Shown one piece after another: positions 3 through 13,157 of a DNA stretch of 13,157 bases. The notes under the pieces are model-generated. The model had not been told where the DNA came from. It worked only from the letters and a program-made list of their open reading frames with translations, and searched no databases. The stretch's first letter is position 1. The number at the start of each line of letters is the position of its first letter. The translations under genes and the position numbers were made by a program. The stretch is from an uncultured Gammaproteobacteria bacterium (GTDB lineage: Bacteria; Patescibacteriota; Microgenomatia; Daviesbacterales; UBA10151), in assembly GCA_964522265.1 (NCBI GenBank), contig CAZFVS010000009.1:5819-18975 (forward strand), given 5' to 3'.

Positions 3-1079
3 GGATCCATTTCGCTATTTATTTTTAACCTAAGACTTGTTTCAGCCGCTCTTTTAGAAAGAAATTTGCATTTCAATAAATTAGTCATAGCCGAAATAGG
101 AGAACTTCTGATGCGTCAAGTTCTGACTATAATTCTGGCTTACTTGGGTTATGGTGTTGCTAGTTTTGTTTGGGGATTACTGGTGAGCCGATTAGGAGGG
201 TCGGTATTTTATTATATTTTATATCCCTGGAAGATGAAATTTCGCTTTTCCTTTGCTGATATAAGACCTTTCCTGCCTTTTGGAATTCCGTTTCAACTGA
301 GTACTATAGCAAACAATGTAGGCGGGATAGCAACTCCCTGGATAGTGGGTGGTGAAGGGACGAAAGCCTTAGGGCTTGTTGGTTGGGCTGGGGGTACCGG
401 TCAAACAGCGGTGTCTATTAGTGATACAGTCAGTAAGGTAATATTCCCGATTTGTGCAAGAGTCCAACATCACAAGAAGCTTGTGATAAGCAGTATCGAG
501 AAAGCGGTTCACTTTACCAGTCTTATGACTTTTCCGGTTGTAGCGATGATGTTTGTTTTGGCTGAACCGATAACTTACATAATATTTACAGCTAAATGGA
601 AAGACGGGATACCGGCTCTGTATGTCTTTACTCTTTCTTCGGTATTTATCTCATTTAGCCATTTGTCCAATTTTATTCTGCTTGGTCTTGGTAAATCACG
701 GATAGTCAGAAACATCTCAATATTAAACGGTTGTCTGCTTTGGTTGTTGGCAATTCCTCTGGTAAGGTATTTTGGTTTTATCGGTATGGCCTGGGCAAAT
801 TTACTAGTTTACCTAACATCAATAATTGCTTTTAGGGAAATAAAAAAAGTAGCTGATATTAGGATAATTACTTTTATTCTTCCGTATTTAATGTTTTCAG
901 CCGTAGCAGGAATAGCTACATTTCTGTATGTTCTTAAATTTCCAATACACAATTTTTTGGAACTTAGTCTGGCTGTGATTTTTGGATTTTTGCTGTATGC
1001 AATACTGGTTGGGATTTTTAGGCTGAAGCTAATTCTTCATGATGCCAAACAAATTTATGACCTTCTCAGGAAAGAATGA
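3..1079 (+). CDS. Polysaccharide/oligosaccharide flippase of the MOP superfamily (Wzx/PST-like), 5'-truncated by the window edge. Only the C-terminal ~359 codons are present.
   Basis: The track starts this ORF at TTG 66, but the same frame (codons from nt 3: GSISLFIFNLRLVSAALLERNLHFNKLVIAE...) has no stop back to the edge. The LLERNLHFNKLVIAEI segment resembles the conserved central (Q/E)R.L.F..L motif of PST/Wzx flippases. The rest is a run of hydrophobic helices typical of the Polysacc_synt_C half. TGA stop at 1077-1079. Confidence 0.7.
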   Translation, partial: GSISLFIFNLRLVSAALLERNLHFNKLVIAEIGELLMRQVLTIILAYLGYGVASFVWGLLVSRLGGSVFYYILYPWKMKFRFSFADIRPFLPFGIPFQLSTIANNVGGIATPWIVGGEGTKALGLVGWAGGTGQTAVSISDTVSKVIFPICARVQHHKKLVISSIEKAVHFTSLMTFPVVAMMFVLAEPITYIIFTAKWKDGIPALYVFTLSSVFISFSHLSNFILLGLGKSRIVRNISILNGCLLWLLAIPLVRYFGFIGMAWANLLVYLTSIIAFREIKKVADIRIITFILPYLMFSAVAGIATFLYVLKFPIHNFLELSLAVIFGFLLYAILVGIFRLKLILHDAKQIYDLLRKE

Positions 1080-1237: not shown

Positions 1238-2017
1238 TCAGCCTTTCTTCTTACTGTCTTTGGCCAAAGCCTGGAGTTCCCAGATTTTTACCCATTTTAA
1301 AAAATGGTAAATCAAAAAAATAGAAGTTAGCACAAAACCCCTCACTCCTGATTTATAATCTTTAAACTCTTTTTGGCGGATCCAGAAGTTATAAATCATC
1401 GAGCCGGGTATTGTTAAAATACCTGCTCTTGACCCTTTTAAATACATGATTTTAGCCTGGTCGTCTGTGTACTTGTTAAATTTATATATCAGACCAGAAA
1501 TACTGCGGTGAGAAAGATGAATTATTGGAGTTTTGAGCTGCCCGATTTTGCCATTTATGATGATTCTTTCATGCACAGCAGCTGGAGTAACCCTCCCAAC
1601 TCCCCGTTTGAAGATTCGAGGATGCCCCCCGGAAAGAGTGGGTGTTAAAGGCTTACCTAAAAAAAATTGGTGAAAATAGACATTATAAGCGCTGTAATCA
1701 CTTTTTTTAATTGCATTGATAATTTCTCTACTCAGGTTAGCAGGTATTCTTTCATCGGCATCAAGCATTATGATCCAGTTACAAGTTGCTTTATTTAAAG
1801 CATATTGTTTTTGTTTACCTAAAGTTTGGAGTTTGTGCAAAAAAACATTTTTGGTATATTTTTTTGCAATTTTTACTGTGTTATCATCACTGAAATCATC
1901 CACCAGAATGATTTCATCAACCCAGAACAAACTTTTGAGAGACCCTGCGATTACATCCTGTTCGTTTTTAGTAATGATAACAGCCGAAATTGACGGATGG
2001 TTTGATAAAGGTCTCAC
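1238..2017 (-). CDS. Family-2 glycosyltransferase, WaaE/KdtX-like (beta-glycosyltransferase of the cd02511 type).
   Basis: The N-terminus ISAVIITKNEQDVIAGSLKSLFWVDEIILVDDFSDDNT is the classic GT2 Rossmann start. It has the LDADE (DxD-type) motif. The C-terminal KFNKYTDDQAK...GVRGFVLTSIFLIYHFLKWVKIWE tail is typical of WaaE-like enzymes. The start is GTG (plus-strand CAC at 2015-2017), and the frame upstream has no other start codon before the divergent wzm-like gene. Confidence 0.85.
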   Translation of the reverse strand: MRPLSNHPSISAVIITKNEQDVIAGSLKSLFWVDEIILVDDFSDDNTVKIAKKYTKNVFLHKLQTLGKQKQYALNKATCNWIIMLDADERIPANLSREIINAIKKSDYSAYNVYFHQFFLGKPLTPTLSGGHPRIFKRGVGRVTPAAVHERIIINGKIGQLKTPIIHLSHRSISGLIYKFNKYTDDQAKIMYLKGSRAGILTIPGSMIYNFWIRQKEFKDYKSGVRGFVLTSIFLIYHFLKWVKIWELQALAKDSKKKG

Positions 2018-2060: not shown

Positions 2061-2900
2061 ATGGATAAAAATTATGACCTGGAAGAAATAATTATTGAAC
2101 CCAAACCCAAATGGATGCTTTTGAAAATTAAAGAGCTGTGGGATTTCAGAGAACTTTTTTACATTTTTGTCTGGAGAGATTTAAAGGTACGTTACAAGCA
2201 AACAATTCTGGGAGTTATGTGGGTAATTTTCCAGCCACTTATCACAGCGGCTGTTTTTTCATTATTTTTCGGAAGGTTGGCAAAAATGTCGTCCGGTAAT
2301 CTGCCGTATGAATTATTTGTATTTATAGGTTTAGTTTTTTGGATTTATTTTTCAAGTGCACTGTCCAATGCGAGCAACAGCATGGTGGAGCATGCCAATA
2401 CCATCAAAAAAATATATTTTCCCAAAGAAATTTTACCGATATCAGCTGTTATTACAAATTTTCTTGATTTTTGCATAAATTTTTTTATTTTAATAATATT
2501 ATCCTTGTACCTCGGTTATATACCTTCTAAAATTATTTTCGTTCTGCTGCCTGTTTCTGTTGTAATTATTTCTTTGGCTGCTTCGGGACTTGGATTGTTT
2601 TTGGCGTCTTTTAATGTAAAATATCGGGATGTCAGATACATTTTACCTTTTTTTATACAGCTTTTACTTTTTCTAACGCCTGTAATCTATCCGTCATCAT
2701 TTTTCAGGCCATCCCTGCAATATTTTTTCGGGTTCAACCCGCTAACCGGTGTCATAGAAAATATGCGGTTAGTTTTATCAGGCCGAAATCCAACGGATTG
2801 GAGCCTGGTTTTTATCTCAGGAACATCCGCAGTATTTTTGTTTATTGGAGGTTTGGCTTATTTCAGATCAACTGAAAGATATTTTGCCGATTTAGCATGA
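2061..2900 (+). CDS. wzm: ABC-2 type polysaccharide/teichoic-acid exporter permease (Wzm / TagG / KpsM family).
   Basis: The 279-aa protein has about 6 hydrophobic helices. The conserved N-terminal segment LWDFRELFYIFVWRDLKVRYKQTILGVMWVIFQPL is characteristic of ABC-2 glycan exporters. Its stop overlaps the ATPase start (ATGA at 2897-2900). Confidence 0.88.
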   Translation: MDKNYDLEEIIIEPKPKWMLLKIKELWDFRELFYIFVWRDLKVRYKQTILGVMWVIFQPLITAAVFSLFFGRLAKMSSGNLPYELFVFIGLVFWIYFSSALSNASNSMVEHANTIKKIYFPKEILPISAVITNFLDFCINFFILIILSLYLGYIPSKIIFVLLPVSVVIISLAASGLGLFLASFNVKYRDVRYILPFFIQLLLFLTPVIYPSSFFRPSLQYFFGFNPLTGVIENMRLVLSGRNPTDWSLVFISGTSAVFLFIGGLAYFRSTERYFADLA

Positions 2901-4177
2901 AACCTCTTATTGAGATTTTTAAATTATCAAAATGCTACAATTCAGTTTCCCAAAAAGATTCCTATGTAGCCCTAAGAGATGTTATACCTAATTTCATAAA
3001 ATCTTCGTTGCAGTTTAAAAAAATTCAAAAGAAATATTTTTTTGCTCTAAGGGGTATCAATTTAGCAGTTAATGAAGGGGATGTTATAGGCGTTATTGGT
3101 GCAAACGGCGCCGGCAAATCGACTTTTTTAAAGATTTTGGCCCGGATTACTCCTCCCACTTTCGGAAAAGCCATCTTAAGGGGAAGAGTGGCATCATTGC
3201 TTGAAGTAGGGACAGGTTTTCATCCGGAGCTGACCGGAAGAGAGAATGTATTTTTAAACGGTACTCTTTTAGGTATGACCAGAAGAGAAATTAGGCAAAA
3301 ATTTGATGATATTGTAAATTTTTCCGGAGTTGAAAAATTTCTTGATGCCCCGGTAAAGCATTATTCAACAGGCATGCAGTTGAGGTTGGCTTTTTCAGTA
3401 GCAGCGCATATTAATCCTGATATTTTGCTTGTTGATGAGATTTTGGCGGTTGGAGACGCTGACTTCCAGAAAAAAACATTGGCAAGAATACGCGATATTT
3501 CTGTCAGAGGGAAGGCGATCATTTTTGTTTCCCATAATTTATCCGCTATTACATCACTTTGCAATAAAGTTGTTCTTTTGGAATCGGGCCGTATGGTAAA
3601 AATCGGTAACCCGGCAACAGTTGTCTCAAGCTATTTGAAAAAATCCGGAGTTATAACGACAGCAAAGTTACCGGCAAACAGTTATTATGCGAACAGTTTT
3701 ATCCACATATTAAAAATCTCAGTTTGCAGCAGTGAAGGTAAGACTTTTAAGTCATTTGATATCACGAAACCCTTAAATATAGAGATTTGTTATCAGATAA
3801 TAAAGATGAATGTATGGTTTACCTGTCATGTTTTCGTTACCGATATGTCGGGAACTCTGCTGTTCCAATCCCCCGAAGATGCCAGCGGAGACCCGGCTTT
3901 TGCTCCAAAAACGACCGGTACGTATAAAAGCACTTGTATTATTCCGGGGAATTTCTTGCCGGAAGGGTTATTTTCTGTGAGGATTGTGATAGCTCCTTCT
4001 TTAATACTTATAAAAGAAGCAATTGATATTAGTAATGTTATCACTTTTCATATACATGACAGTTTAAGGGGGGATTCAGTAAGAGGAAAGTTGTCAATGA
4101 TATTATCCGGAGCTGTCAGGCCAAAATTTGCCTGGAATAGGATAAAATTAACAAAACCTGCTTCAAGTTTTAAATGA
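2897..4177 (+). CDS. wzt: ABC transporter ATP-binding protein for glycan export (Wzt / TagH family) with an additional ~165-aa C-terminal beta-rich domain (Wzt_C-like).
   Basis: Walker A GANGAGKST (nt 3098-3124), signature YSTGMQLRLAF, Walker B ILLVDEILAVGD and H-loop FVSHN are all present. Residues ~262-426 (nt ~3680-4174) extend beyond the nucleotide-binding domain. The gene is coupled by ATGA overlaps at both ends. Confidence 0.9.
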   Translation: MKPLIEIFKLSKCYNSVSQKDSYVALRDVIPNFIKSSLQFKKIQKKYFFALRGINLAVNEGDVIGVIGANGAGKSTFLKILARITPPTFGKAILRGRVASLLEVGTGFHPELTGRENVFLNGTLLGMTRREIRQKFDDIVNFSGVEKFLDAPVKHYSTGMQLRLAFSVAAHINPDILLVDEILAVGDADFQKKTLARIRDISVRGKAIIFVSHNLSAITSLCNKVVLLESGRMVKIGNPATVVSSYLKKSGVITTAKLPANSYYANSFIHILKISVCSSEGKTFKSFDITKPLNIEICYQIIKMNVWFTCHVFVTDMSGTLLFQSPEDASGDPAFAPKTTGTYKSTCIIPGNFLPEGLFSVRIVIAPSLILIKEAIDISNVITFHIHDSLRGDSVRGKLSMILSGAVRPKFAWNRIKLTKPASSFK

Positions 4178-5748
4178 CCCAAGAAAAAATTAGTGCCAAA
4201 CAAAAACTACCCGGATTATTTATTGGGATTTGTACAGTTTGCCTGATTGCAGTTTTTTTGTATAGCGGGGTTTTAAATGCTTATTTTGTAAGTGAAGATT
4301 ATGAATGGTGGACCAGGGTGCGGAATATTGATTTAATCAACTCTTTCCGGTTATTTTTACCACCAATTTTGGGTGGTATATCTTTACCACCATATTTTCG
4401 GCCCCTGGTTGGTTGGACTGTTTGGTTGGATACAGTTGTTTTTGGGATGACTCCTTTGGCATCCCATATAACCAGCTTAATATTTCATTTAATTAATATT
4501 GCCTTGGTTGGAATAATTGGTTTTTATATTTTCAGAAAATCGATCTTAGCCGGCGTACTGGGTGCACTTTTTTTTTCCGTTTTTCCCTTTCATCCTGAAG
4601 CTGTAGTTTGGAGTATAGGCGGTAGGAGTGATGTAGTAATGGCTACTTTTTATTTATCAGCTTTCCTCGGTGTCATGAAGTATGTTGAATACAATAAGAG
4701 AACTTTTGTAATTCCGATTTTAATATGCTTTCTGCTGGGATTATTATCTAAAGAAGCTGCTGCGACCTTTCCTCTTGCGGTTTTGGTTTATCTTCTTTTT
4801 TCAAATCAAGGAAGCATTCACGAAAAACTATCCGCCCAGAAAAATTTGTTAGTGATATCGGTTGTGGTATTTATAGGTTATTTTGTTTTCCGTAGTGTGG
4901 TACTGCAGACGATTAACCCCTATCAGGCGGTGAAAATGATAAGCAGTTTTACTCTGGGCAGCATATTTCAATTATATCTGATTCTATTATTGAGCAGCTT
5001 ACTCTTTAGAAGTATTCTTAACCGGATGGTGCCAAAAAATCTGGAATGGATAAAGAATAAAATATGGTATTTATGGATGCTGATAGGGATTACATTTTTG
5101 CCGACTTCCTATTTGGTTACACAAGAAAGGCAGTTGTATTTACCCTCAGCTGTTTCCGGCTTGTTTCTATCGGGGGTTATTTTCATAATTTATAGTTATA
5201 TAAAAGGCAAATCAGTTTTAATCAAAACATTTTTTATTATTTCTGTCATCTCTGGTTTGGTATATAGCGGCCAATTGCTTTACCAAAGAAATGAAGTCTG
5301 GAAAAATGCAGGAAATATTGCCCAGTCTATTGCCGGCCAGCTTGCCGATCAATTAGCGGAAGTGGGCACCGATAAAAAAGTTTATTTTGTCAATGTACCG
5401 GACAGCGTTAATGGGGCATATATTTACCGGACTCATCTTCAGCAAGCGGTAGAGTTTTTGTTAAACAGGCAAGGGCCACAGCTTATTGTTACACCGGAGC
5501 TTTATGGTACAGACTCAAAAGTTTACTACATATCCCCCAGAAATATCCGGGTCGAAAACGAACAGGGTTTTGTGATGTATTTGGCTAACAAGGATAGGTA
5601 TGGGAGGTTTGTAAAAGAAACCCCGGACTATTATGCGACCTTATTATCAAAAAAGTTATTAAATATAGAGATTAAGGATCAGGATTTCAGTAAAAAAAGA
5701 AACCTGGTTTATTTTTTAAAGAATGGGAAAATAGAATTATTGGAATAA
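4174..5748 (+). CDS. Polytopic membrane protein, GT-C-fold glycosyltransferase-like (TMTC / PMT_2 / DUF1736-type), with a ~150-aa non-TPR C-terminal soluble domain.
   Basis: An acidic first-loop motif (VSEDYEWW) follows TM1. The motifs YFRPLVGWTVWLD...HITSLIFHLINIAL...FHPEAVVWSIGGRSDV...LLSKEAAATFP match the conserved loop and helix pattern of bacterial TMTC-like GT-C proteins. ATGA overlap with the wzt-like gene. Confidence 0.62.
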   Translation: MTQEKISAKQKLPGLFIGICTVCLIAVFLYSGVLNAYFVSEDYEWWTRVRNIDLINSFRLFLPPILGGISLPPYFRPLVGWTVWLDTVVFGMTPLASHITSLIFHLINIALVGIIGFYIFRKSILAGVLGALFFSVFPFHPEAVVWSIGGRSDVVMATFYLSAFLGVMKYVEYNKRTFVIPILICFLLGLLSKEAAATFPLAVLVYLLFSNQGSIHEKLSAQKNLLVISVVVFIGYFVFRSVVLQTINPYQAVKMISSFTLGSIFQLYLILLLSSLLFRSILNRMVPKNLEWIKNKIWYLWMLIGITFLPTSYLVTQERQLYLPSAVSGLFLSGVIFIIYSYIKGKSVLIKTFFIISVISGLVYSGQLLYQRNEVWKNAGNIAQSIAGQLADQLAEVGTDKKVYFVNVPDSVNGAYIYRTHLQQAVEFLLNRQGPQLIVTPELYGTDSKVYYISPRNIRVENEQGFVMYLANKDRYGRFVKETPDYYATLLSKKLLNIEIKDQDFSKKRNLVYFLKNGKIELLE

Positions 5749-5749
5749 C

Positions 5750-7492
5750 ATGTTTTTACTGATTCTTATATTAATTTTAGGGGTGGTTGTCAGGTTATGG
5801 GGAATAAATTTCGGTTTGCCGTATATTCAACATTTAGATGAGGGGGGGGTAACATATACTGCTTTTTTTGCAGCAGCCAACCACCTTAAACCGGATATGT
5901 ATTTTCATACAACCTTCCTGCCGTACAGCTTGATATTGTTATATGGGGTATATTATTTATTCGGGTTAATATTCCATTTATGGGGGTCGACCCAACAGTT
6001 TTTTACTGCATTTTTAAAAGATCCGAGCATCTTTATTCTGATCGGTCGAATGATTACTGTTATGATTTCGGTGGCTTCTATAGTATTGATTTATTGGATT
6101 GGTAAGAAACTTTACGACTACAAGATAGGTTTAATATCTGCATTATTTTTAAGCCTAGCATTTCTTCATGTACAAGAGTCACACTATATCAAAGAAGATG
6201 TCATGATGGGGTTTTTTGGTTTGTTAATCTACTACAATTCTTATCAATTATCCCAAAAAGGTAGGTACAGAAATTATTTATTGTGCGGGCTGTTTCTGGG
6301 ATTGTCCTTTGCGCTAAAGTATAATTTTTTTGTTTTTTTGCCGGTATTTATTGTCTCCCATCTGCTGGTCGGTTTTCAATCAAAACATAAATGGTTGTAT
6401 CTAAATTTAAAATTTCTTACAGCGATTTTTATTGTAGTTACTCTTTATTTTTTTATAAATCCCTACGTATTAATTGATTGGCACAAGGCAGTTCGGCAGC
6501 TTGATTATCAAAAGGAGCTTTCGATTGTCCAGTGGGTTAGTTCTGAAGGTCAACCTGTTTGGGTTTATTACATAAGCCATCATTTACTAAACGGAATCGG
6601 TTTTCCCTTGCTAATCTTAAGTGTTTTAGGAGTTTTTTATTCTGTTTTTGGTAAGAAAAACACAAAAGATATTCTTTTAGTTACGACGCCTGTCTGTTTT
6701 TTCCTCTTGATCGGGATAGCTGGAGGCACAAATTTTTCCAGATATGTGGTGATGATTATTCCTCAGCTGATGCTTATTGCTGCTGTAATGATAAATCGAT
6801 TGGTAAATATGATCAACCAAACGCAACCTAAAAAGAATTTTCTGCTCTTTTTTGCCAGTATTCTGGCAGTTATTCCGTCAGCTATTTTAGTCATTAAATT
6901 TGATTATTACCTGAGCAGTAATGATACGCGCATATTGGCTAAAAATTGGATAGAAAAGAATATACCTGCCGGTACAAGACTGGTTAACGAGGGGGCTGCC
7001 AGATCGCAGATCTATTCGGCAATCGGACCGCCCCTTTCCATGGACCAGGAATCAATAAAGAAACTTATTGCAGAGGTATCCGGAAAGGGCTTAGATATCG
7101 GATCACTTCTTGCGCTGTCATATGCGACTCAAGATAGGGTTGGTTATAACTTAATTGGTACTCCCAGGATGGATTATAAATATAATCCTGATTCAGGTAG
7201 TTATAGTACTCTTTCGTCGGTTGATGAATATGTTAAAGGAGAGTACTGCTTTTTAGTTTTATCTAGCTGGGCTGTTAAAAACAGGCAAAAATATAACCGG
7301 GATTTTGAAACTTCAATCAATAATTCATATTATTTGTATAAAGAATTTTTGCCTTTTCCTGAGCTGAACGAAGATCTCATATGGAATGTTGATTATAATA
7401 ATCTGGTTCGTGTCAGAATATTCGACAACAGAATTACTTCTGGTCCGCGGATTAAAATCTTTAAACTTAAGGATAACAAGGGTTGCAAGTAA
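5750..7492 (+). CDS. Polytopic membrane protein, ArnT / GT39-like GT-C glycosyltransferase (lipid-carrier-dependent) with a C-terminal soluble domain.
   Basis: The N-terminal RLWGINFGLPYIQHLDEGGV motif (LP....DE in the first extracytoplasmic loop) is typical of PMT_2/ArnT-like enzymes. There are at least 10 hydrophobic helices and a soluble tail from about residue 385. The start lies 1 nt after the preceding TAA. Confidence 0.68.
   Translation: MFLLILILILGVVVRLWGINFGLPYIQHLDEGGVTYTAFFAAANHLKPDMYFHTTFLPYSLILLYGVYYLFGLIFHLWGSTQQFFTAFLKDPSIFILIGRMITVMISVASIVLIYWIGKKLYDYKIGLISALFLSLAFLHVQESHYIKEDVMMGFFGLLIYYNSYQLSQKGRYRNYLLCGLFLGLSFALKYNFFVFLPVFIVSHLLVGFQSKHKWLYLNLKFLTAIFIVVTLYFFINPYVLIDWHKAVRQLDYQKELSIVQWVSSEGQPVWVYYISHHLLNGIGFPLLILSVLGVFYSVFGKKNTKDILLVTTPVCFFLLIGIAGGTNFSRYVVMIIPQLMLIAAVMINRLVNMINQTQPKKNFLLFFASILAVIPSAILVIKFDYYLSSNDTRILAKNWIEKNIPAGTRLVNEGAARSQIYSAIGPPLSMDQESIKKLIAEVSGKGLDIGSLLALSYATQDRVGYNLIGTPRMDYKYNPDSGSYSTLSSVDEYVKGEYCFLVLSSWAVKNRQKYNRDFETSINNSYYLYKEFLPFPELNEDLIWNVDYNNLVRVRIFDNRITSGPRIKIFKLKDNKGCK
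5842..5849 (+). repeat. G8 homopolymer tract inside the GT39-like CDS (codons gaG GGG GGG Gta, encoding E31-G32-G33-V34).
   Basis: Counted directly: aggggggggt at 5841-5850. It is the longest G/C run I noticed in an otherwise AT-rich window. Confidence 0.9.
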
Positions 7493-7560: not shown

Positions 7561-10479
7561 ATGAAAAGGTGGTTGCTGCTAGTTTCTAGTATTATCTTTC
7601 ATATATCAACGCATATCACTGCTGTAGCGCTTCTCATATTCTTTTTTTTGCCCATCTCAAATTGGTATATCAATCACTCGGTGATACTGGGAGTTGACTT
7701 CTATAATATGGTTTCTAACACTTCTTATTATTCCCGGCATTTTGATGCCCGTTACTTAGGTTACAAACCAATCAATTGGGCCGGATACCCATATGCATAT
7801 GATTACCCCTCCCTTCATTTTTATCTGAATGCATTGCTGGTGCCATATTTTGGTGTTCAACAATCAACTCTAATATATTCGATGTTATCTTTGTTTGCGT
7901 TCGGGCTTAGTAGTTATTTTTTATTCTGGGTGATTTCAAGAAATAAAGCGTTGTCTTTTGTTTTGGCGCTTTTCAGCCTATACTCCTCGGCGAATTGGGG
8001 TCCGATTATTTGGGGTGGTAACTTACAGTATGTAGGAACAATGGCATTTTTACCGTTTACTATTGGGTTGCTTTATTTATATACCCAAAGCAAAACAAGG
8101 AAATTTTTAATCGTTTCTGCTGCTGTTGCAGGACTTTCTGTATTGGGCCACCCGCAGATCTTAATTTCTTACATCTCAATATTTGTGTTCCTGATTATTG
8201 TCTTCGGATACTTTGAAAAAATTAAGGCGACTATCAAAAGAAGGCTTGTAGATTTGGGGATTTATTTTGGGGTAGTTCTGGTTATATCCTATGTTCAATT
8301 ACAACAATTCCTGGGATCCAACATCCTATATTTACCCGTATATATTTTAAATCAAATTAGTGCACTATTTTCAAGATTTTCCGGGTCTGTGAGTAAGCCT
8401 GATTATGGTTCTTCGGTTAGCAGTATTACCCCGATAGCAACTATCAAAGCAATCGCAGCCTACAATAAACAGGAGTTTTGGAGGTTTCTGTCTGAAGTTA
8501 ATGAAATATTTTTTGTATTTTTTGCTGCAGCGGTCGTCTTATTAATTATTAGTGTAATTTTTGCAAAAAAGAGGTTAAAGGTATTAGGCGTTCTGCCTTT
8601 TTTAATATTCTTAGGCTATACGTTCGTATCAATTTATGGACTTTCAAGGGGAATCCCTTTTTTTCAGGGTGGTTGGTATAGGGCTTTTTGGGCAATGCCT
8701 CTGGCATTTGGGGTTTGTATTGCTTATGGATACCGAATGTTTTGGTTCTCGTTAATAGAGCGGATCAGTCTGTTGGATAGTTTAGCTGCAAAAAGTATTC
8801 TGGCATTGGTATTTACAATTGTAATTTCAGTATCGGGATATTTTTACTTCAGTAGGCAGCCGTTGGAAGATTTTATTGATAAGCACATTGATACCATTAG
8901 GTTTAGACAAAAGTCAGGTGTTTATCCGGATGCGCTTAACAAACCGTTTAAAAACCATTCAGAATTTGAAAATTTAGCCCAAAATTTAGTTCCTAAATGG
9001 CTTCCTGTGCAAGATCATCAATACCGATTATATTCAGCTGACCAGAAAGTCAATATTTGGTGGCCAACTTTTTATGAGATGCCTCTTTTCAGAGGTTATA
9101 ACGATTCCCCGATTGGTTCAGGTATGGCAGGGTCATATTTTTGGACTGATATAGCACTCGCTGCCAATGCCGGAAAAGATCCCATTATTGAGGATTTCAA
9201 ATATCCAAAAGATATTGCTAAAAACAACGCGCTATATTTAATTGATTGGTTTTCGATAGGTTATTTTGAGGGGGGACACGAAAGAAGCGATTCTTACAAT
9301 CCTCCATCCAGTTTCTTACTGGAGGATAAAAATATTTTTGAAAGGGAAGAAATAGCTTCTGTTGCCGGTAGAGTTAAAGTATTTGAGACAAAAGACGGGA
9401 AAATGGAGTGGGTGAATGACGACAGTGACGCACTGAAATTTTACAAGTTCAAAGATGGTTTAGTTTCACCGGTTGCGTCAGCTACAGATGCATCAATTAT
9501 TGGTATTATCGGTTCGTGGGAGAGTTTTGAAACTTTTAACAGAAGTTTGGCGATGACTAATACCAACTCTCAGCAGCTTATTACAGTGTGGCTTACACAA
9601 TCATTGGCAGAAATACCCAGTTTGGATAATCTAAATTTAGACGCAGTGATATTATATGGATATAAAAATGGAGATAACAATTCTGGTTGGAATAAAGTAG
9701 AAAAATATCTCAAAAAAGGTGGTAAAGTTTTTGTGGAAACAGGTAGTGATGTTTTTCAGACTAAAAATACCAAGCTGCCTAAAATTTTTCCTATAGAAGG
9801 TACCAAACGAGAGGGATTGGGCATGAGTTGGGATTTAAATGAATTTGGACCTCCCAGTATTGATGGTAAGGAGTGGAACTTTTCACTGCCAACAAACTTA
9901 AAGAATAATGCTGAAGTTATACTAAAAACCGGTAATACACCCTTGATTGTTAGCGGATCTTTTGAAGGCGGTAAAGTAATTTGGAGCGGCATGAACCTTT
10001 TCTATCATGCCAATGTTTATAAATCAACTAAAGAAGGAGAGTTTATCAGGTCCATAGTTTCTCGATTGGTTTCACTGGAAAAAAACGATCCTCCACCCTC
10101 GCAAGCCCAATTTATCAGCAACCGAAAGATTAAAATTAAATCCCAAAATGCCAAAGCAGTGTTGCTTAGACAGGAATTTTGGCCTGTCTGGACTGCCAAA
10201 GTTAATGGTCAAACTCAAAAGATCTTACCGGCAGGTCCAACGGGTCCAGGATTTATGTACGTTCCGATTCCGACACAGCTTCGAGATAAACCGGTTGAGG
10301 TTGAATTCAATTATCAGGGGGATACCTCAACACTTATATATACAATATTAACGATTGTAGTATCGCTGGTTATACTAGATTATTTATTAGGTGGCAAAAT
10401 CACTAAAATGATTTATTTGAGACACCAGGGGAAAATAGTTAATCATATAGGTAGGTGGTGGAAAAAAGAAGATGAGTGA
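7561..10479 (+). CDS. Large (972 aa) YfhO-like / GT-C-superfamily-like membrane protein. N-terminal polytopic domain (~aa 1-430), ~490-aa extracytoplasmic domain, single C-terminal TM anchor.
   Basis: It has many hydrophobic helices with loop motifs WAGYPYAYDYPSLHFY and GLSVLGHPQ. The C-terminal EFWPVWTAKVNGQTQKILPAGP..GFMYVPIP...VEVEFNYQG, followed by the helix TLIYTILTIVVSLVILDYLLGG, reproduces the W.A.V.G......V....V.F.Y-plus-terminal-TM pattern of YfhO-family proteins. The family call is from memory of motif patterns, not from a search. Confidence 0.6.
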   Translation: MKRWLLLVSSIIFHISTHITAVALLIFFFLPISNWYINHSVILGVDFYNMVSNTSYYSRHFDARYLGYKPINWAGYPYAYDYPSLHFYLNALLVPYFGVQQSTLIYSMLSLFAFGLSSYFLFWVISRNKALSFVLALFSLYSSANWGPIIWGGNLQYVGTMAFLPFTIGLLYLYTQSKTRKFLIVSAAVAGLSVLGHPQILISYISIFVFLIIVFGYFEKIKATIKRRLVDLGIYFGVVLVISYVQLQQFLGSNILYLPVYILNQISALFSRFSGSVSKPDYGSSVSSITPIATIKAIAAYNKQEFWRFLSEVNEIFFVFFAAAVVLLIISVIFAKKRLKVLGVLPFLIFLGYTFVSIYGLSRGIPFFQGGWYRAFWAMPLAFGVCIAYGYRMFWFSLIERISLLDSLAAKSILALVFTIVISVSGYFYFSRQPLEDFIDKHIDTIRFRQKSGVYPDALNKPFKNHSEFENLAQNLVPKWLPVQDHQYRLYSADQKVNIWWPTFYEMPLFRGYNDSPIGSGMAGSYFWTDIALAANAGKDPIIEDFKYPKDIAKNNALYLIDWFSIGYFEGGHERSDSYNPPSSFLLEDKNIFEREEIASVAGRVKVFETKDGKMEWVNDDSDALKFYKFKDGLVSPVASATDASIIGIIGSWESFETFNRSLAMTNTNSQQLITVWLTQSLAEIPSLDNLNLDAVILYGYKNGDNNSGWNKVEKYLKKGGKVFVETGSDVFQTKNTKLPKIFPIEGTKREGLGMSWDLNEFGPPSIDGKEWNFSLPTNLKNNAEVILKTGNTPLIVSGSFEGGKVIWSGMNLFYHANVYKSTKEGEFIRSIVSRLVSLEKNDPPPSQAQFISNRKIKIKSQNAKAVLLRQEFWPVWTAKVNGQTQKILPAGPTGPGFMYVPIPTQLRDKPVEVEFNYQGDTSTLIYTILTIVVSLVILDYLLGGKITKMIYLRHQGKIVNHIGRWWKKEDE

Positions 10480-13156
10480 TGATAAAGAGTCGGTAAAACT
10501 TAATGAAGAGATAATCGAAAAAGATGTCGAAAAACTGACCGAAGATGTAGTGAAAATAATAAAAAAAGAGGAAAAGATTCATACCCGGATATTCAGATGG
10601 ATTTTATTTTTAATAAGTGCTTTAATAAATGTTGCTGCAGCGGGAATAGTTTATAAAACTCTAGAACCTATTATCGGTTGGTATCTGACAAAAAATCCGG
10701 TTAGAGGAATTGATTTATTTTTATCTGCAGCTTATGCCAACTATATTATAAAATGGCATGACTTTTTAAGGCCTTTTGCCTGGAAATATATTTGGTTTGG
10801 CGGACAACCATTCTCTTTAGATTATCCATCGCTATATTTTTTAGGGATGATTCCCTTTGTAGAAAAGTTCGGATTAATTCAGGGAGTAATGCAATTTGCT
10901 GTGTTTTTTTTGCTGATCTTTGCCATCTCTTGCTATTTTTTCTACAAGGAACTTTCTTCAAATGTCGGTTTGTCTTTGGTTTTAACTGTTGCTACTATTT
11001 TATCGGTAAATTTATATCGAGCACTAATTTGGGCCGGCGGTATTCCTTTCTGGTCTACCCAAGCCTTTTATCCGTTAGTCGGTTTTCTGCTGGTCAGGTT
11101 TTTGAATACTTACAAAAAAAAATGGTTATATTTAGCAGGTATTATTGCGGGGTTGGGAGTTATGGGGCATCCGCAAGGTTTTTTAAATGTTATTATTCCT
11201 TTAAGCATTCTGATTTTACTCTTTTACAGCGGTAAGGAGGGGTTAAAAATTGGTCAAAGGATCAAGAATTTGGTTATTTTTCTTCTAATTTGGTTTTTGG
11301 TTGGTCTTCCGGGTATATTATTAAATTTTGTCGGCACCCTATTTTCAGCACTAATATCTTATTTGGGCCAATTAGGTTCATTATTTGGTAAATCAGTTAT
11401 AAATCCATCTGTAGTAAGTAGCGGTCCGGTTGAGGGATCAACAGCTGCAGATATAATTAAATGGACTCATCAGCAATTTTATTATGTCTTTTCTGATACG
11501 CAGCAAATCATTTGGTACTTATTGGGAATATTTGCACTTTGCTGGATTGTTACCGTTGTATTCCGCAAGCACCGGATTAGAAGCATACTATGTATTTTGC
11601 CCTTTGTAATTTTCCTAAGTTATCAATTTATCTCTGTATTTTTGTTTTCAAGAGGGATAGACTTATTTATCACCGGTTGGTACAAAGCTTTCTGGCCTAT
11701 ACCGGTGGCTGCTTCCGCGTTAACTGCGGTGTTTTGGGGGCAAACAACGCAGGCGTTTAAAAGATTTAATTCCTTTAAATTATTTAAGATGACCTCTTGG
11801 TCTGTTGCAATAGCAACAAATTTAATCTTTATTTCGTTTGGGTATTTATATTTTACACCCGGATTAACAAAAGTATTAGTTGACCGGATAGATTTTTTAT
11901 CCACGATGTCCAGTCCGTATCCTGATATTTTGAATATTAAAATCAGTGATACAGAGAGAAAAGATTTGGCATCCCAACTGGTTCCTAAGTTTATAGACCC
12001 GAACGATAAAAATAAAAGGCTTTATACGGTTGACGCCACGGTCAATTTATGGTGGCCTACTATGTATGATATGCCACTAGCCAGAGGGTATGTAGATCCT
12101 GCAATTAATACCGCCCAAAGATGGGGAATTTTTTGGTTGGATTCAATTATGGGGCCGTCTGGTAAAGATTCCAAAGCCTCATTGATTGTTGACTGGAAAA
12201 CTCCGGAAAATGTGGCTTATGAAAATACTAAGTTTCTGCTTGATTGGAATTCCATATATTATTATTTAGGGAATTATTCAAGCAACTCTCCCTCGATACT
12301 GGCGGAACATGTAATAAGCAATGATTATACAGATGGGGAGGAAGAGGTCAAGACATTCGGAGTGATTAGGCGTTATGGTCCGCCTGCAGAAGAAGTGGGG
12401 AAGTTTTATCCTGATTGGACTCAATCGCTTAAATATTATCGAGTTAAGCCTGAACTGGTTTCACCGATACTGGCTCCCAATAATGCCAGCCCAATCCTGC
12501 TAATTGGAGATGCGGTTGCTTATGACACATTTTATCGCTTTATCGGTATGCATAATTTGAATAGTCAAAAAATTGTAATTGCAACGAAATCAAATTTTAT
12601 AGATGACTACAGTTTATCTGAAATAAAAAAGTTTGATAAGGTAATCCTATACCGCTATGACTATAAAGATAAATCAAAAGCCTGGGAAACACTGTCGAAA
12701 TATCTGGAAAAAGGCGGACGGGTATATATTGATACCGGACCAGAGGGGAAAGAAGCCGCAGCTAGTAATTTACCTGGGATACTGCCTGTAAAACGAACTA
12801 CCAGAAACAACATTGGACGGGATTGGAACGTTGAGGTTTCAGATAGTAATCTAACACAAGAAATAATGTTTGATAAATTCACCCCTTTAGATTTTGACGG
12901 ACAACCCTGGAATGTATCCCATCCGGATAGTGACAGTGATCTTGCAGCAGATGCAAAAATCATTTTAAAAAACAATGGCAAAATAGTAGCCGTTGAAACC
13001 GATATTGGATCCGGAAAGGTAATTTGGACAGGGTTTAATTTACCGTATCATATAATCCGGGATTATAACGAAGAAGAATCCAAGTTTTTGATTAACATCC
13101 TCTTTTCCGATCTTGATATAGCGGAAAAGAGGATCGATAATTTTAATTATCGGTTC
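10472..13156 (+). CDS. Second YfhO-like large membrane protein, a tandem paralog of 7561..10479. It is 3'-truncated by the window edge (895 codons present) and is NOT in the supplied ORF track.
   Basis: Frame 2 is open from ATG 10472 (overlapping the upstream stop: ATGAGTGA) to the last base. Translation: MSDDKESVKLNEEIIEKDVEKLTEDVVKIIKKEEKIHTRIFRWILFLISALINVAAAGIVYK...DYPSLYFL...GLGVMGHPQ...GWYKAFWPIP...LVPKFIDPNDKNKRLYTVDATVNLWWPTMYDMPLARGY...KYLEKGGRVYIDTGPE...GSGKVIWTGFNLPYH...IDNFNYRF. These motifs are collinear with the upstream gene. Confidence 0.85.
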   Translation, partial: MSDDKESVKLNEEIIEKDVEKLTEDVVKIIKKEEKIHTRIFRWILFLISALINVAAAGIVYKTLEPIIGWYLTKNPVRGIDLFLSAAYANYIIKWHDFLRPFAWKYIWFGGQPFSLDYPSLYFLGMIPFVEKFGLIQGVMQFAVFFLLIFAISCYFFYKELSSNVGLSLVLTVATILSVNLYRALIWAGGIPFWSTQAFYPLVGFLLVRFLNTYKKKWLYLAGIIAGLGVMGHPQGFLNVIIPLSILILLFYSGKEGLKIGQRIKNLVIFLLIWFLVGLPGILLNFVGTLFSALISYLGQLGSLFGKSVINPSVVSSGPVEGSTAADIIKWTHQQFYYVFSDTQQIIWYLLGIFALCWIVTVVFRKHRIRSILCILPFVIFLSYQFISVFLFSRGIDLFITGWYKAFWPIPVAASALTAVFWGQTTQAFKRFNSFKLFKMTSWSVAIATNLIFISFGYLYFTPGLTKVLVDRIDFLSTMSSPYPDILNIKISDTERKDLASQLVPKFIDPNDKNKRLYTVDATVNLWWPTMYDMPLARGYVDPAINTAQRWGIFWLDSIMGPSGKDSKASLIVDWKTPENVAYENTKFLLDWNSIYYYLGNYSSNSPSILAEHVISNDYTDGEEEVKTFGVIRRYGPPAEEVGKFYPDWTQSLKYYRVKPELVSPILAPNNASPILLIGDAVAYDTFYRFIGMHNLNSQKIVIATKSNFIDDYSLSEIKKFDKVILYRYDYKDKSKAWETLSKYLEKGGRVYIDTGPEGKEAAASNLPGILPVKRTTRNNIGRDWNVEVSDSNLTQEIMFDKFTPLDFDGQPWNVSHPDSDSDLAADAKIILKNNGKIVAVETDIGSGKVIWTGFNLPYHIIRDYNEEESKFLINILFSDLDIAEKRIDNFNYRF

Positions 13157-13157
13157 A

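Follow-up and report, generated by a model that had tools for sequence, protein, structure and literature searches.

An edge-truncated gene in a Microgenomates glycan-assembly operon and its probable assignment to the GT-C membrane glycosyltransferases

Does the right-hand end of this stretch of DNA (contig CAZFVS010000009.1; 13,157 nt, analysed as a whole and called the window below) contain a gene, and if so, what does the gene encode? In a list of open reading frames (ORFs) that leaves out those running off an edge, the terminal 2.7 kb, one fifth of the window, appear non-coding or are misannotated by four small shadow ORFs. The evidence presented here leads us to a reading that we regard as probable: the segment holds the first 895 codons (about 122 more lie outside the window) of the second of two coupled tandem paralogs, named A and B, and paralog B is a membrane glycosyltransferase of the GT-C fold, PF10131 group, encoded in a surface-glycan operon of the Microgenomates, within the Candidate Phyla Radiation (CPR).

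A protein-coding gene truncated by the window edge

Translation of the + strand from the ATG at 10472 to nt 13157 yields 895 codons and not a single stop; the remaining five frames of the interval contain between 38 and 78 stops each. When the segment was shuffled 200 times, the longest run without a stop had a mean of 90 codons and a maximum of 156. Codon usage, scored as a log-likelihood trained on five upstream genes of the + strand, gave +214 for this frame and values below zero for the other five. Going upstream in this frame, a stop is first met at 10448; between it and ATG 10472 there is no other start codon. The closest ortholog shares this start position and has a very similar N-terminus (MSN... 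versus MSD...). The best homolog, a hypothetical protein of 1017 amino acids (aa) from Candidatus Daviesbacteria (P0001), aligns without gaps over all 895 codons at 79% identity. Nucleotide differences from the 79%-identical ortholog number 147/75/354 at codon positions 1/2/3, the differing codons being synonymous in 260 cases and non-synonymous in 188. Codon usage and this substitution pattern indicate that the frame is under selection, and 10472-13157 is thus confirmed as a real protein-coding gene that the window edge cuts short.

These results bear out a preliminary description of the window, which had proposed an unlisted 895-codon ORF running off the right edge and had set aside the four listed ORFs of the region as other-frame shadows. 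Its checks of codon phase were reproduced (M231-G-H-P-Q at nt 11162-11176; V524-N-L-W-W-P529 at nt 12041-12058), its coordinates for the shadow ORFs are exact, and the codon scores of all four lie below that of the main frame (Table 1). Neither an in-frame stop nor a coding score favouring an alternative frame was found. Virtually no credence can be given to the idea that the frame is open by chance or is a pseudogene remnant, with one of the alternative-frame ORFs as the real gene. The minus-strand ORF at 11623-11904, alone among the four, is also open in the ortholog; against this stand the stops that break the other three there, a length far above chance, the codon usage, the conserved homologs and the third-position bias of the substitutions.

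By design, the ORF list leaves out frames that extend past an end, which explains the absence of this gene; the omission reflects a listing rule and not biology. The same problem arises at the left edge of the window (see below). In a collection of 15 billion proteins, the products of all genes that are complete in the window occur as singletons and trace to a single NCBI contig of 18,975 bp; the window is 5.8 kb shorter than that contig, whose additional sequence probably lies on the left. Neither the 895-aa fragment nor a full-length version closer than 79% is present in that collection, although all its neighbours are, which suggests that the source assembly probably ends close to the right edge of the window. 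Look-ups of the exact products of neighbouring genes led to no recorded DNA, a scan of genome collections returned only relatives at 79% identity or less, and an exact 45-nt pattern taken from 13080-13124 had no match in metagenome contigs.

Family, fold and candidate active site

Along the whole paralog B product, one Pfam family is matched: PF10131 (PTPS_related), with 33.8 bits for a gathering score of 26.4 (E = 1.8e-8). This family, a member of unknown function in the GT-C clan, CL0111 (PMC7801869), is matched by 16 of the 18 family members considered here (best E 9.5e-13), and no other family is. Of the two Pfam assignments that the preliminary description had suggested trying, PF10131 therefore stands and YfhO (PF09586) falls, the latter matching none of the 18 members and neither of the isolated halves at E<=10. 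No NCBIfam model matches the product. The PF10131 match is confined to residues 705-782 (nt 12584-12817; profile positions 476-555 of 621), in the soluble domain; for the membrane half, it is the structure model that supports a GT-C assignment. Paralog A aligns with the N-terminal part of the same profile (positions 4-144), at 25.7 bits just under the cut-off. Like PF10131 proteins, paralog B is a large multi-pass membrane protein with a C-terminal soluble part, but it matches only about 80 of the 621 profile positions, its membrane half being too divergent. The paralog B family looks like a distant, CPR-specific branch of PF10131. Paralog B itself adds a member to a GT-C-clan family that is catalogued but uncharacterised and is typical of Microgenomates.

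Close homologs number 17 (858-1028 aa), and of two further word-indexed searches, one returned the same 17 proteins and the other 7 relatives of paralog A. An exhaustive profile search of 1.84 billion representatives yielded 966 proteins at E<=1e-3, of which 528 reach E<=1e-30; most are 880-1010 aa long, and the 966 represent clusters at 50% identity. The family thus comprises some 1000 such clusters without a characterised member, nearly always as tandem pairs in Microgenomates glycan clusters. For these bacteria, which live as episymbionts, surface glycans are probably of importance. The present finding overturns nothing and raises no question of long standing; it is a matter of annotation hygiene and a pointer to an unstudied envelope-glycosylation module.

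An AlphaFold2 model of the window protein was built from the 18-sequence alignment (mean pLDDT 79.6, pTM 0.71), and a second model was made of P0001 residues 463-1017, which include the part beyond the window (pLDDT 85.5, pTM 0.83). Hydropathy and model together define 11 transmembrane (TM) helices. Lysine and arginine account for 21 of 73 residues in the predicted cytoplasmic segments and for 12 of 181 in the extracytoplasmic ones, and the model likewise predicts a cytoplasmic N-terminus, which would place D81, H233 and K/R405 on the outer face. Extracytoplasmic loops hold 17 of the 22 membrane-domain residues that are invariant, TM helices the other 5, and cytoplasmic loops none. D81, in the first extracytoplasmic loop (EL1), does not vary among the 18 sequences and is 95% conserved across 123 aligned, divergent full-length members; in this larger alignment, the other most conserved positions are H233 (97%, in the GHPQ loop), R516 (99%) and D591 (98%), together with a basic residue at 405 and several positions of the glutamine-amidotransferase-like domain including N856 and E869. 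GT-C enzymes have as their hallmark an acidic residue conserved in this first loop (PMC8035078; PMC7801869), and D81 is such a residue. Together with the domain map, the candidate active-site residues D81, H233, K/R405, R516 and D591 offer direct targets for experiment.

The membrane domain is predicted to adopt a GT-C-like fold. A Foldseek search of the PDB with the model retrieved GT-C structures at E values between 1.4e-6 and 2.8e-4, all with probability 1.00: yeast and mammalian STT3 (1.4e-6 to 6e-6; 8agc_A, 1.4e-6), the arabinofuranosyltransferase AftA (8if8_B, 1.1e-5), PglB (5ogl_A, 1.5e-5) and DPY19 (7zlg_A, 2e-4). The C-terminal soluble domain matched proteins of the class-I glutamine-amidotransferase-like type: STM3548, lin1909, domain B of family 42 glycoside hydrolases (GH42) and the GIFT domain of IFT52. 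In the P0001 model, a membrane-proximal alpha/beta subdomain with a long hairpin is followed by a domain resembling class-I glutamine amidotransferases (GATase1-like, ~668-878), a beta-sandwich (~894-962), a TM helix (~966-993) and a cytosolic helix ending in WWQKEDGE. The best PDB matches of this part (E ~2e-8 over ~350 columns) come from GH42, GH164 and related enzymes, whose B and C domains, both non-catalytic, are the parts matched. Only these two domains match: the catalytic (beta/alpha)8 barrel was not found, and the region preceding the GATase1-like domain is not barrel-shaped in the model.

From the orthologs (959-1028 aa), a full length of about 1017 aa is expected for paralog B. What the window lacks would accordingly be some 122 codons, predicted from sequence and model to encode the beta-sandwich, one TM helix and a short cytosolic WWxKEDE tail of ~25-30 residues. 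The preliminary description had anticipated about 130 missing codons ending in a TM helix; the number was roughly right, but orthologs and model place the ~25-30-residue tail beyond the helix.

The tandem pair, its proposed function and the alternatives

Paralog B is 31% identical to paralog A over 860 aa (E = 2e-119), in keeping with the earlier claim that the product is a membrane protein collinear with the 972-aa protein encoded upstream. The C-terminus of paralog A comprises a beta-sandwich, a TM helix (residues ~925-943) and a WWKKEDE tail, and a conserved WWxKEDE tail ends both paralog types (A1 alignment columns ~1078-1090). Within window positions 10455-10479, a stretch rich in purines and the start codon ATG of paralog B lie among the codons of the paralog A tail, so that one sequence would serve as protein tail and as translation-coupling signal. 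The A-then-B pair is present in Daviesbacteria loci (L001-L003) and in Curtissbacteria-type loci (L004, L007, L008); the 8-nt overlap between the two genes was seen directly in L001-L003 and L004, and a further locus (L005) has the pair without this overlap. Among genomes further removed, L011 (Chisholmbacteria) and L012 have two or three copies in tandem, and the locus of some genomes has one copy or three. Across the conserved loci, A and B form distinct orthology groups. Since both keep every invariant residue, neither resembles a pseudoenzyme. Variants of 1264-1326 aa (P0024, P0026, P0027, P0046; 9959-11134 in L011) carry a second copy of the GATase1-like domain and beta-sandwich before the TM anchor, which makes this module a duplicable unit.

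How might such a protein work? The donor would be a sugar or glycan on a polyprenyl-phosphate carrier, flipped or exported across the membrane to the outer face, where the enzyme would work, and D81 may act as catalytic base or metal ligand. In the models, the soluble region (the subdomain with R516 and D591, the GATase1-like domain and the beta-sandwich) faces outward and is re-anchored by the final TM helix; these domains may position an extracellular acceptor, a surface polysaccharide or a protein, for the transfer. Large GT-C enzymes belonging to multi-component systems for transmembrane glycosylation (GT-A enzyme, flippase, GT-C enzyme) carry acceptor-binding domains (PMC8035078), and by analogy the gene context of the window would fit this scheme, with a flippase encoded alongside the GT-C proteins. 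In systems of this kind such as CsbB/GtcA/YfhO and GacI/GacK/GacL (PMC8035078), as in the window, a GT2 enzyme of GT-A fold, a Wzx-type flippase and GT-C enzymes occur in one cluster; the window differs in that its GT2 protein is not evidently a C55-P-sugar synthase, in its four GT-C proteins and Wzm/Wzt transporter, and in its CPR host.

The known proteins nearest to paralog B resemble it in part. STT3 and PglB (GT66) share the N-in topology, an EL1 with a conserved Asp and, at the C-terminus, a large domain outside the cytoplasm, but they have 13 TM helices against 11+1 in paralog B and no sequence relation to it; the fold of the C-terminal domain is also different, being in paralog B GATase1-like with a beta-sandwich and re-anchored by the final TM helix. 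AftA, from mycobacteria, and the C-mannosyltransferase DPY19 are alike in fold and use polyprenyl-monophosphate sugars at the outer or lumenal face, with polymers or proteins as acceptors; they lack sequence similarity to paralog B, and their soluble domains are of other kinds. The B and C domains of GH42 and GH164 enzymes (related to ThuA/STM3548-type proteins and the IFT52 GIFT domain) superpose on the C-terminal ~350 residues of the full-length ortholog. Unlike these enzymes, paralog B has neither the TIM barrel (domain A) nor a glycoside hydrolase Pfam match, and its module stands between a GT-C membrane domain, to which it is fused, and a TM anchor.

Several observations weigh against the assignment to GT-C glycosyltransferases. 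Taken alone, the membrane half of paralog B (residues 1-462) matches no Pfam model at E<=10. A single-sequence search found no link to solved structures, and a profile search of PDB sequences gave only spurious matches to de novo TIM barrels (E>0.6) and no oligosaccharyltransferase (OST). TM-scores to GT-C structures are modest (TMq 0.30-0.36, TMt 0.37-0.48), partly because query and targets carry different extra domains. D81 is no more than a candidate, at the residue level, for the catalytic Asp of known GT-C enzymes. The GT2 protein of the operon looks, from its sequence, more like a protein or peptide glycosyltransferase (GmaR, SunS) than a polyprenyl-phosphate sugar synthase, so that it is at most a candidate for the donor-supply step. 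Finally, no functional study of the PF10131/PTPS-related family or of CPR GT-C enzymes was found in the literature.

Among the alternatives, paralog B could be an OST or ligase-like enzyme which, as STT3, PglB and AglB do, transfers a preassembled glycan or polymer en bloc from an undecaprenyl-diphosphate carrier, here exported by Wzm/Wzt, onto a surface protein or the wall, instead of adding sugars one at a time from a polyprenyl-monophosphate donor. STT3 and PglB are the best structural matches, an exporter of lipid-linked polymers is encoded in the same operon, the neighbouring GT2 resembles protein glycosyltransferases, and the C-terminal domain has a weak GIFT resemblance (IFT52 5fmr, E 1.4e-3; PF23355, E 0.1), a GIFT domain being carried by Wbp1 of the eukaryotic OST (PMC7226087). 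We nevertheless consider this unlikely. STT3 (PF02516) gives no Pfam match at any threshold, E<=10 included; the WWDYG motif is absent, its nearest equivalent being VNLWWP (524-529), which lacks D-Y-G and whose first W is variable in the homologs; two enzymes with monophosphate donors, AftA and DPY19, match almost equally well; and chains of Wbp1/OST48 are absent from the best 50 matches of both fold searches. A bolder version makes the A/B pair a self-contained, heteromeric bacterial counterpart of the multi-subunit OST: two GT-C catalytic cores, each with its own sugar-binding module (GIFT/GH42-B-like, re-anchored by the C-terminal TM helix), would unite STT3 and Wbp1 roles in each chain, and the pair would link the glycan exported by the ABC transporter to the wall or to surface proteins in CPR bacteria. 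This is a long shot; if true, it would define a new class of glycan-attachment machine. STT3 and Wbp1 combined in one chain, attractive in view of the GIFT domain of Wbp1, lacks specific support, since GH42-type B and C domains match far better and no Wbp1 chain is among those best 50. As for a teichoic-acid glycosyltransferase of the YfhO family, the general likeness (large size, GT-C-type membrane protein, extracellular domain, gene in a glycan cluster; PMC8035078) is offset by the absence of PF09586 matches described above; we rejected this assignment, which is extremely improbable.

A different question is whether A and B act separately or form an obligate heteromer, as Pmt1-Pmt2 or EmbA-EmbB do, one of the two being possibly mainly structural. 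The conserved A-then-B order with distinct orthology groups (Daviesbacteria, Curtissbacteria, L005) argues for such a complex, and the recurrent 8-nt overlap in Daviesbacteria and Curtissbacteria loci suggests coupled translation. The C-terminal domain, moreover, is similar in fold to GH42 domain B, which is an oligomerisation domain in GH42 enzymes. On the other hand, no natural A-B fusion was found among 175 family proteins (a Rosetta-stone test), the long variants merely duplicating the C-terminal module; both paralogs keep every invariant residue; and the locus has one copy or three in some genomes. A heteromer therefore seems to us conceivable but doubtful.

The surrounding operon

Taken together, the genes of the window form a glycan-assembly operon, which encodes a Wzx flippase, a GT2 protein, Wzm/Wzt, two PMT_2-type GT-C proteins and paralogs A and B (Table 1). 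Successive genes of the + strand overlap by 4, 4 and 8 nt (2897-2900, 4174-4177, 10472-10479), from which the operon appears tightly packed and probably translationally coupled.

Table 1. Features of the window, with domains and motifs of paralog B
Feature	Position (nt)	Strand	Remarks
Wzx/MOP-type flippase, 5' end cut by left edge	3..1079	+	Polysacc_synt_3 match; frame open from nt 3
Small GT2 glycosyltransferase	1238..2017	-	Conserved neighbour of the A/B pair
Wzm, ABC-2 permease	2061..2900	+	Glycan-export transporter
Wzt, ABC ATPase	2897..4177	+	Glycan-export transporter
PMT_2-type GT-C glycosyltransferase	4174..5748	+	
PMT_2-type GT-C glycosyltransferase	5750..7492	+	
Paralog A, complete, 972 aa	7561..10479	+	Same architecture as the B family; 100% identical to P0022
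8-nt overlap, start ATG of B with last codons and TGA of A (GAAGATGAGTGA)	10472..10479	+	Also in Daviesbacteria and Curtissbacteria loci
Paralog B, partial coding sequence	10472..13157	+	895 codons, 3' end cut by window edge; stop-free, codon usage, ortholog substitutions
Charged cytoplasmic N-terminal helix of B (predicted), residues 1-42	10472..10597	+	10 K+R, 12 D+E; closest orthologs only
Membrane domain of B, residues 43-461, 11 predicted TM helices, GT-C-like fold (predicted)	10598..11854	+	Hydropathy, AlphaFold2 model, Foldseek, positive-inside count
First extracytoplasmic loop EL1 of B, residues 67-136	10670..10879	+	9 of 22 invariant membrane-domain residues; D81 codon at 10712-10714
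G232-H233-P234-Q235 motif of B, short extracytoplasmic loop	11165..11176	+	H233 97% conserved family-wide
Membrane-proximal extracytoplasmic alpha/beta subdomain of B, long beta-hairpin, residues 462-668	11855..12475	+	Holds R516 (99%) and D591 (98%)
Class-I glutamine-amidotransferase-like domain of B (GH42 domain-B-like, GIFT-like), residues ~669-878	12476..13105	+	Fold matches; encloses the PF10131 match
Shadow ORF, not a gene	10746..10961	-	Codon score -0.001 versus 0.196 per codon in main frame; 3 stops in ortholog
Shadow ORF, not a gene	10792..11235	+	Codon score -0.004 versus 0.244 in main frame; 2 stops in ortholog
Shadow ORF	11623..11904	-	Codon score 0.186 versus 0.265 per codon in main frame; open in ortholog (0 stops)
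Shadow ORF, not a gene	12661..12981	-	Codon score 0.029 versus 0.311 in main frame; 2 stops in ortholog

At the left edge, the Polysacc_synt_3 match of the flippase begins at profile position 109 of 293 in a frame open from nt 3, which identifies the gene as 5'-truncated by the edge; the ORF list gives it only from an internal TTG at 66. Flippase homologs are present in four of the related loci (L004, L007, L009, L010). The closest solved relative of the small GT2 protein is the flagellin glycosyltransferase GmaR (E = 4.4e-15), and its weak SunS and AglJ-type matches are all below family cut-offs. Orthologs of this protein (39-45% identity) are encoded in L004/L007 and L005 immediately upstream of paralog A; in L008 the ortholog lies nearby. 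In related loci, the genes after the A/B pair encode a methyltransferase, a double GT4 and a further PMT_2 protein, and three lineages share the order GT2, A, B, methyltransferase, GT4-GT4, PMT_2. Profile comparison detected no relation between paralog B and the two neighbouring PMT_2 proteins of the window (probability <1%).

Beyond its ATPase domain, Wzt has a C-terminal extension of ~180 aa (residues ~250-426) without a Pfam match. Such extensions bind the capped glycan terminus in the Wzt proteins of O-antigen systems. Loci related to the window are rich in methyltransferases.

Two of the related loci (L006, L012) come from metagenome-assembled genome records titled 'uncultured Gammaproteobacteria bacterium'. 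P0001 is elsewhere named Candidatus Daviesbacteria, all other relatives are Microgenomates, and the Gammaproteobacteria titles are probably a taxonomic mislabel.

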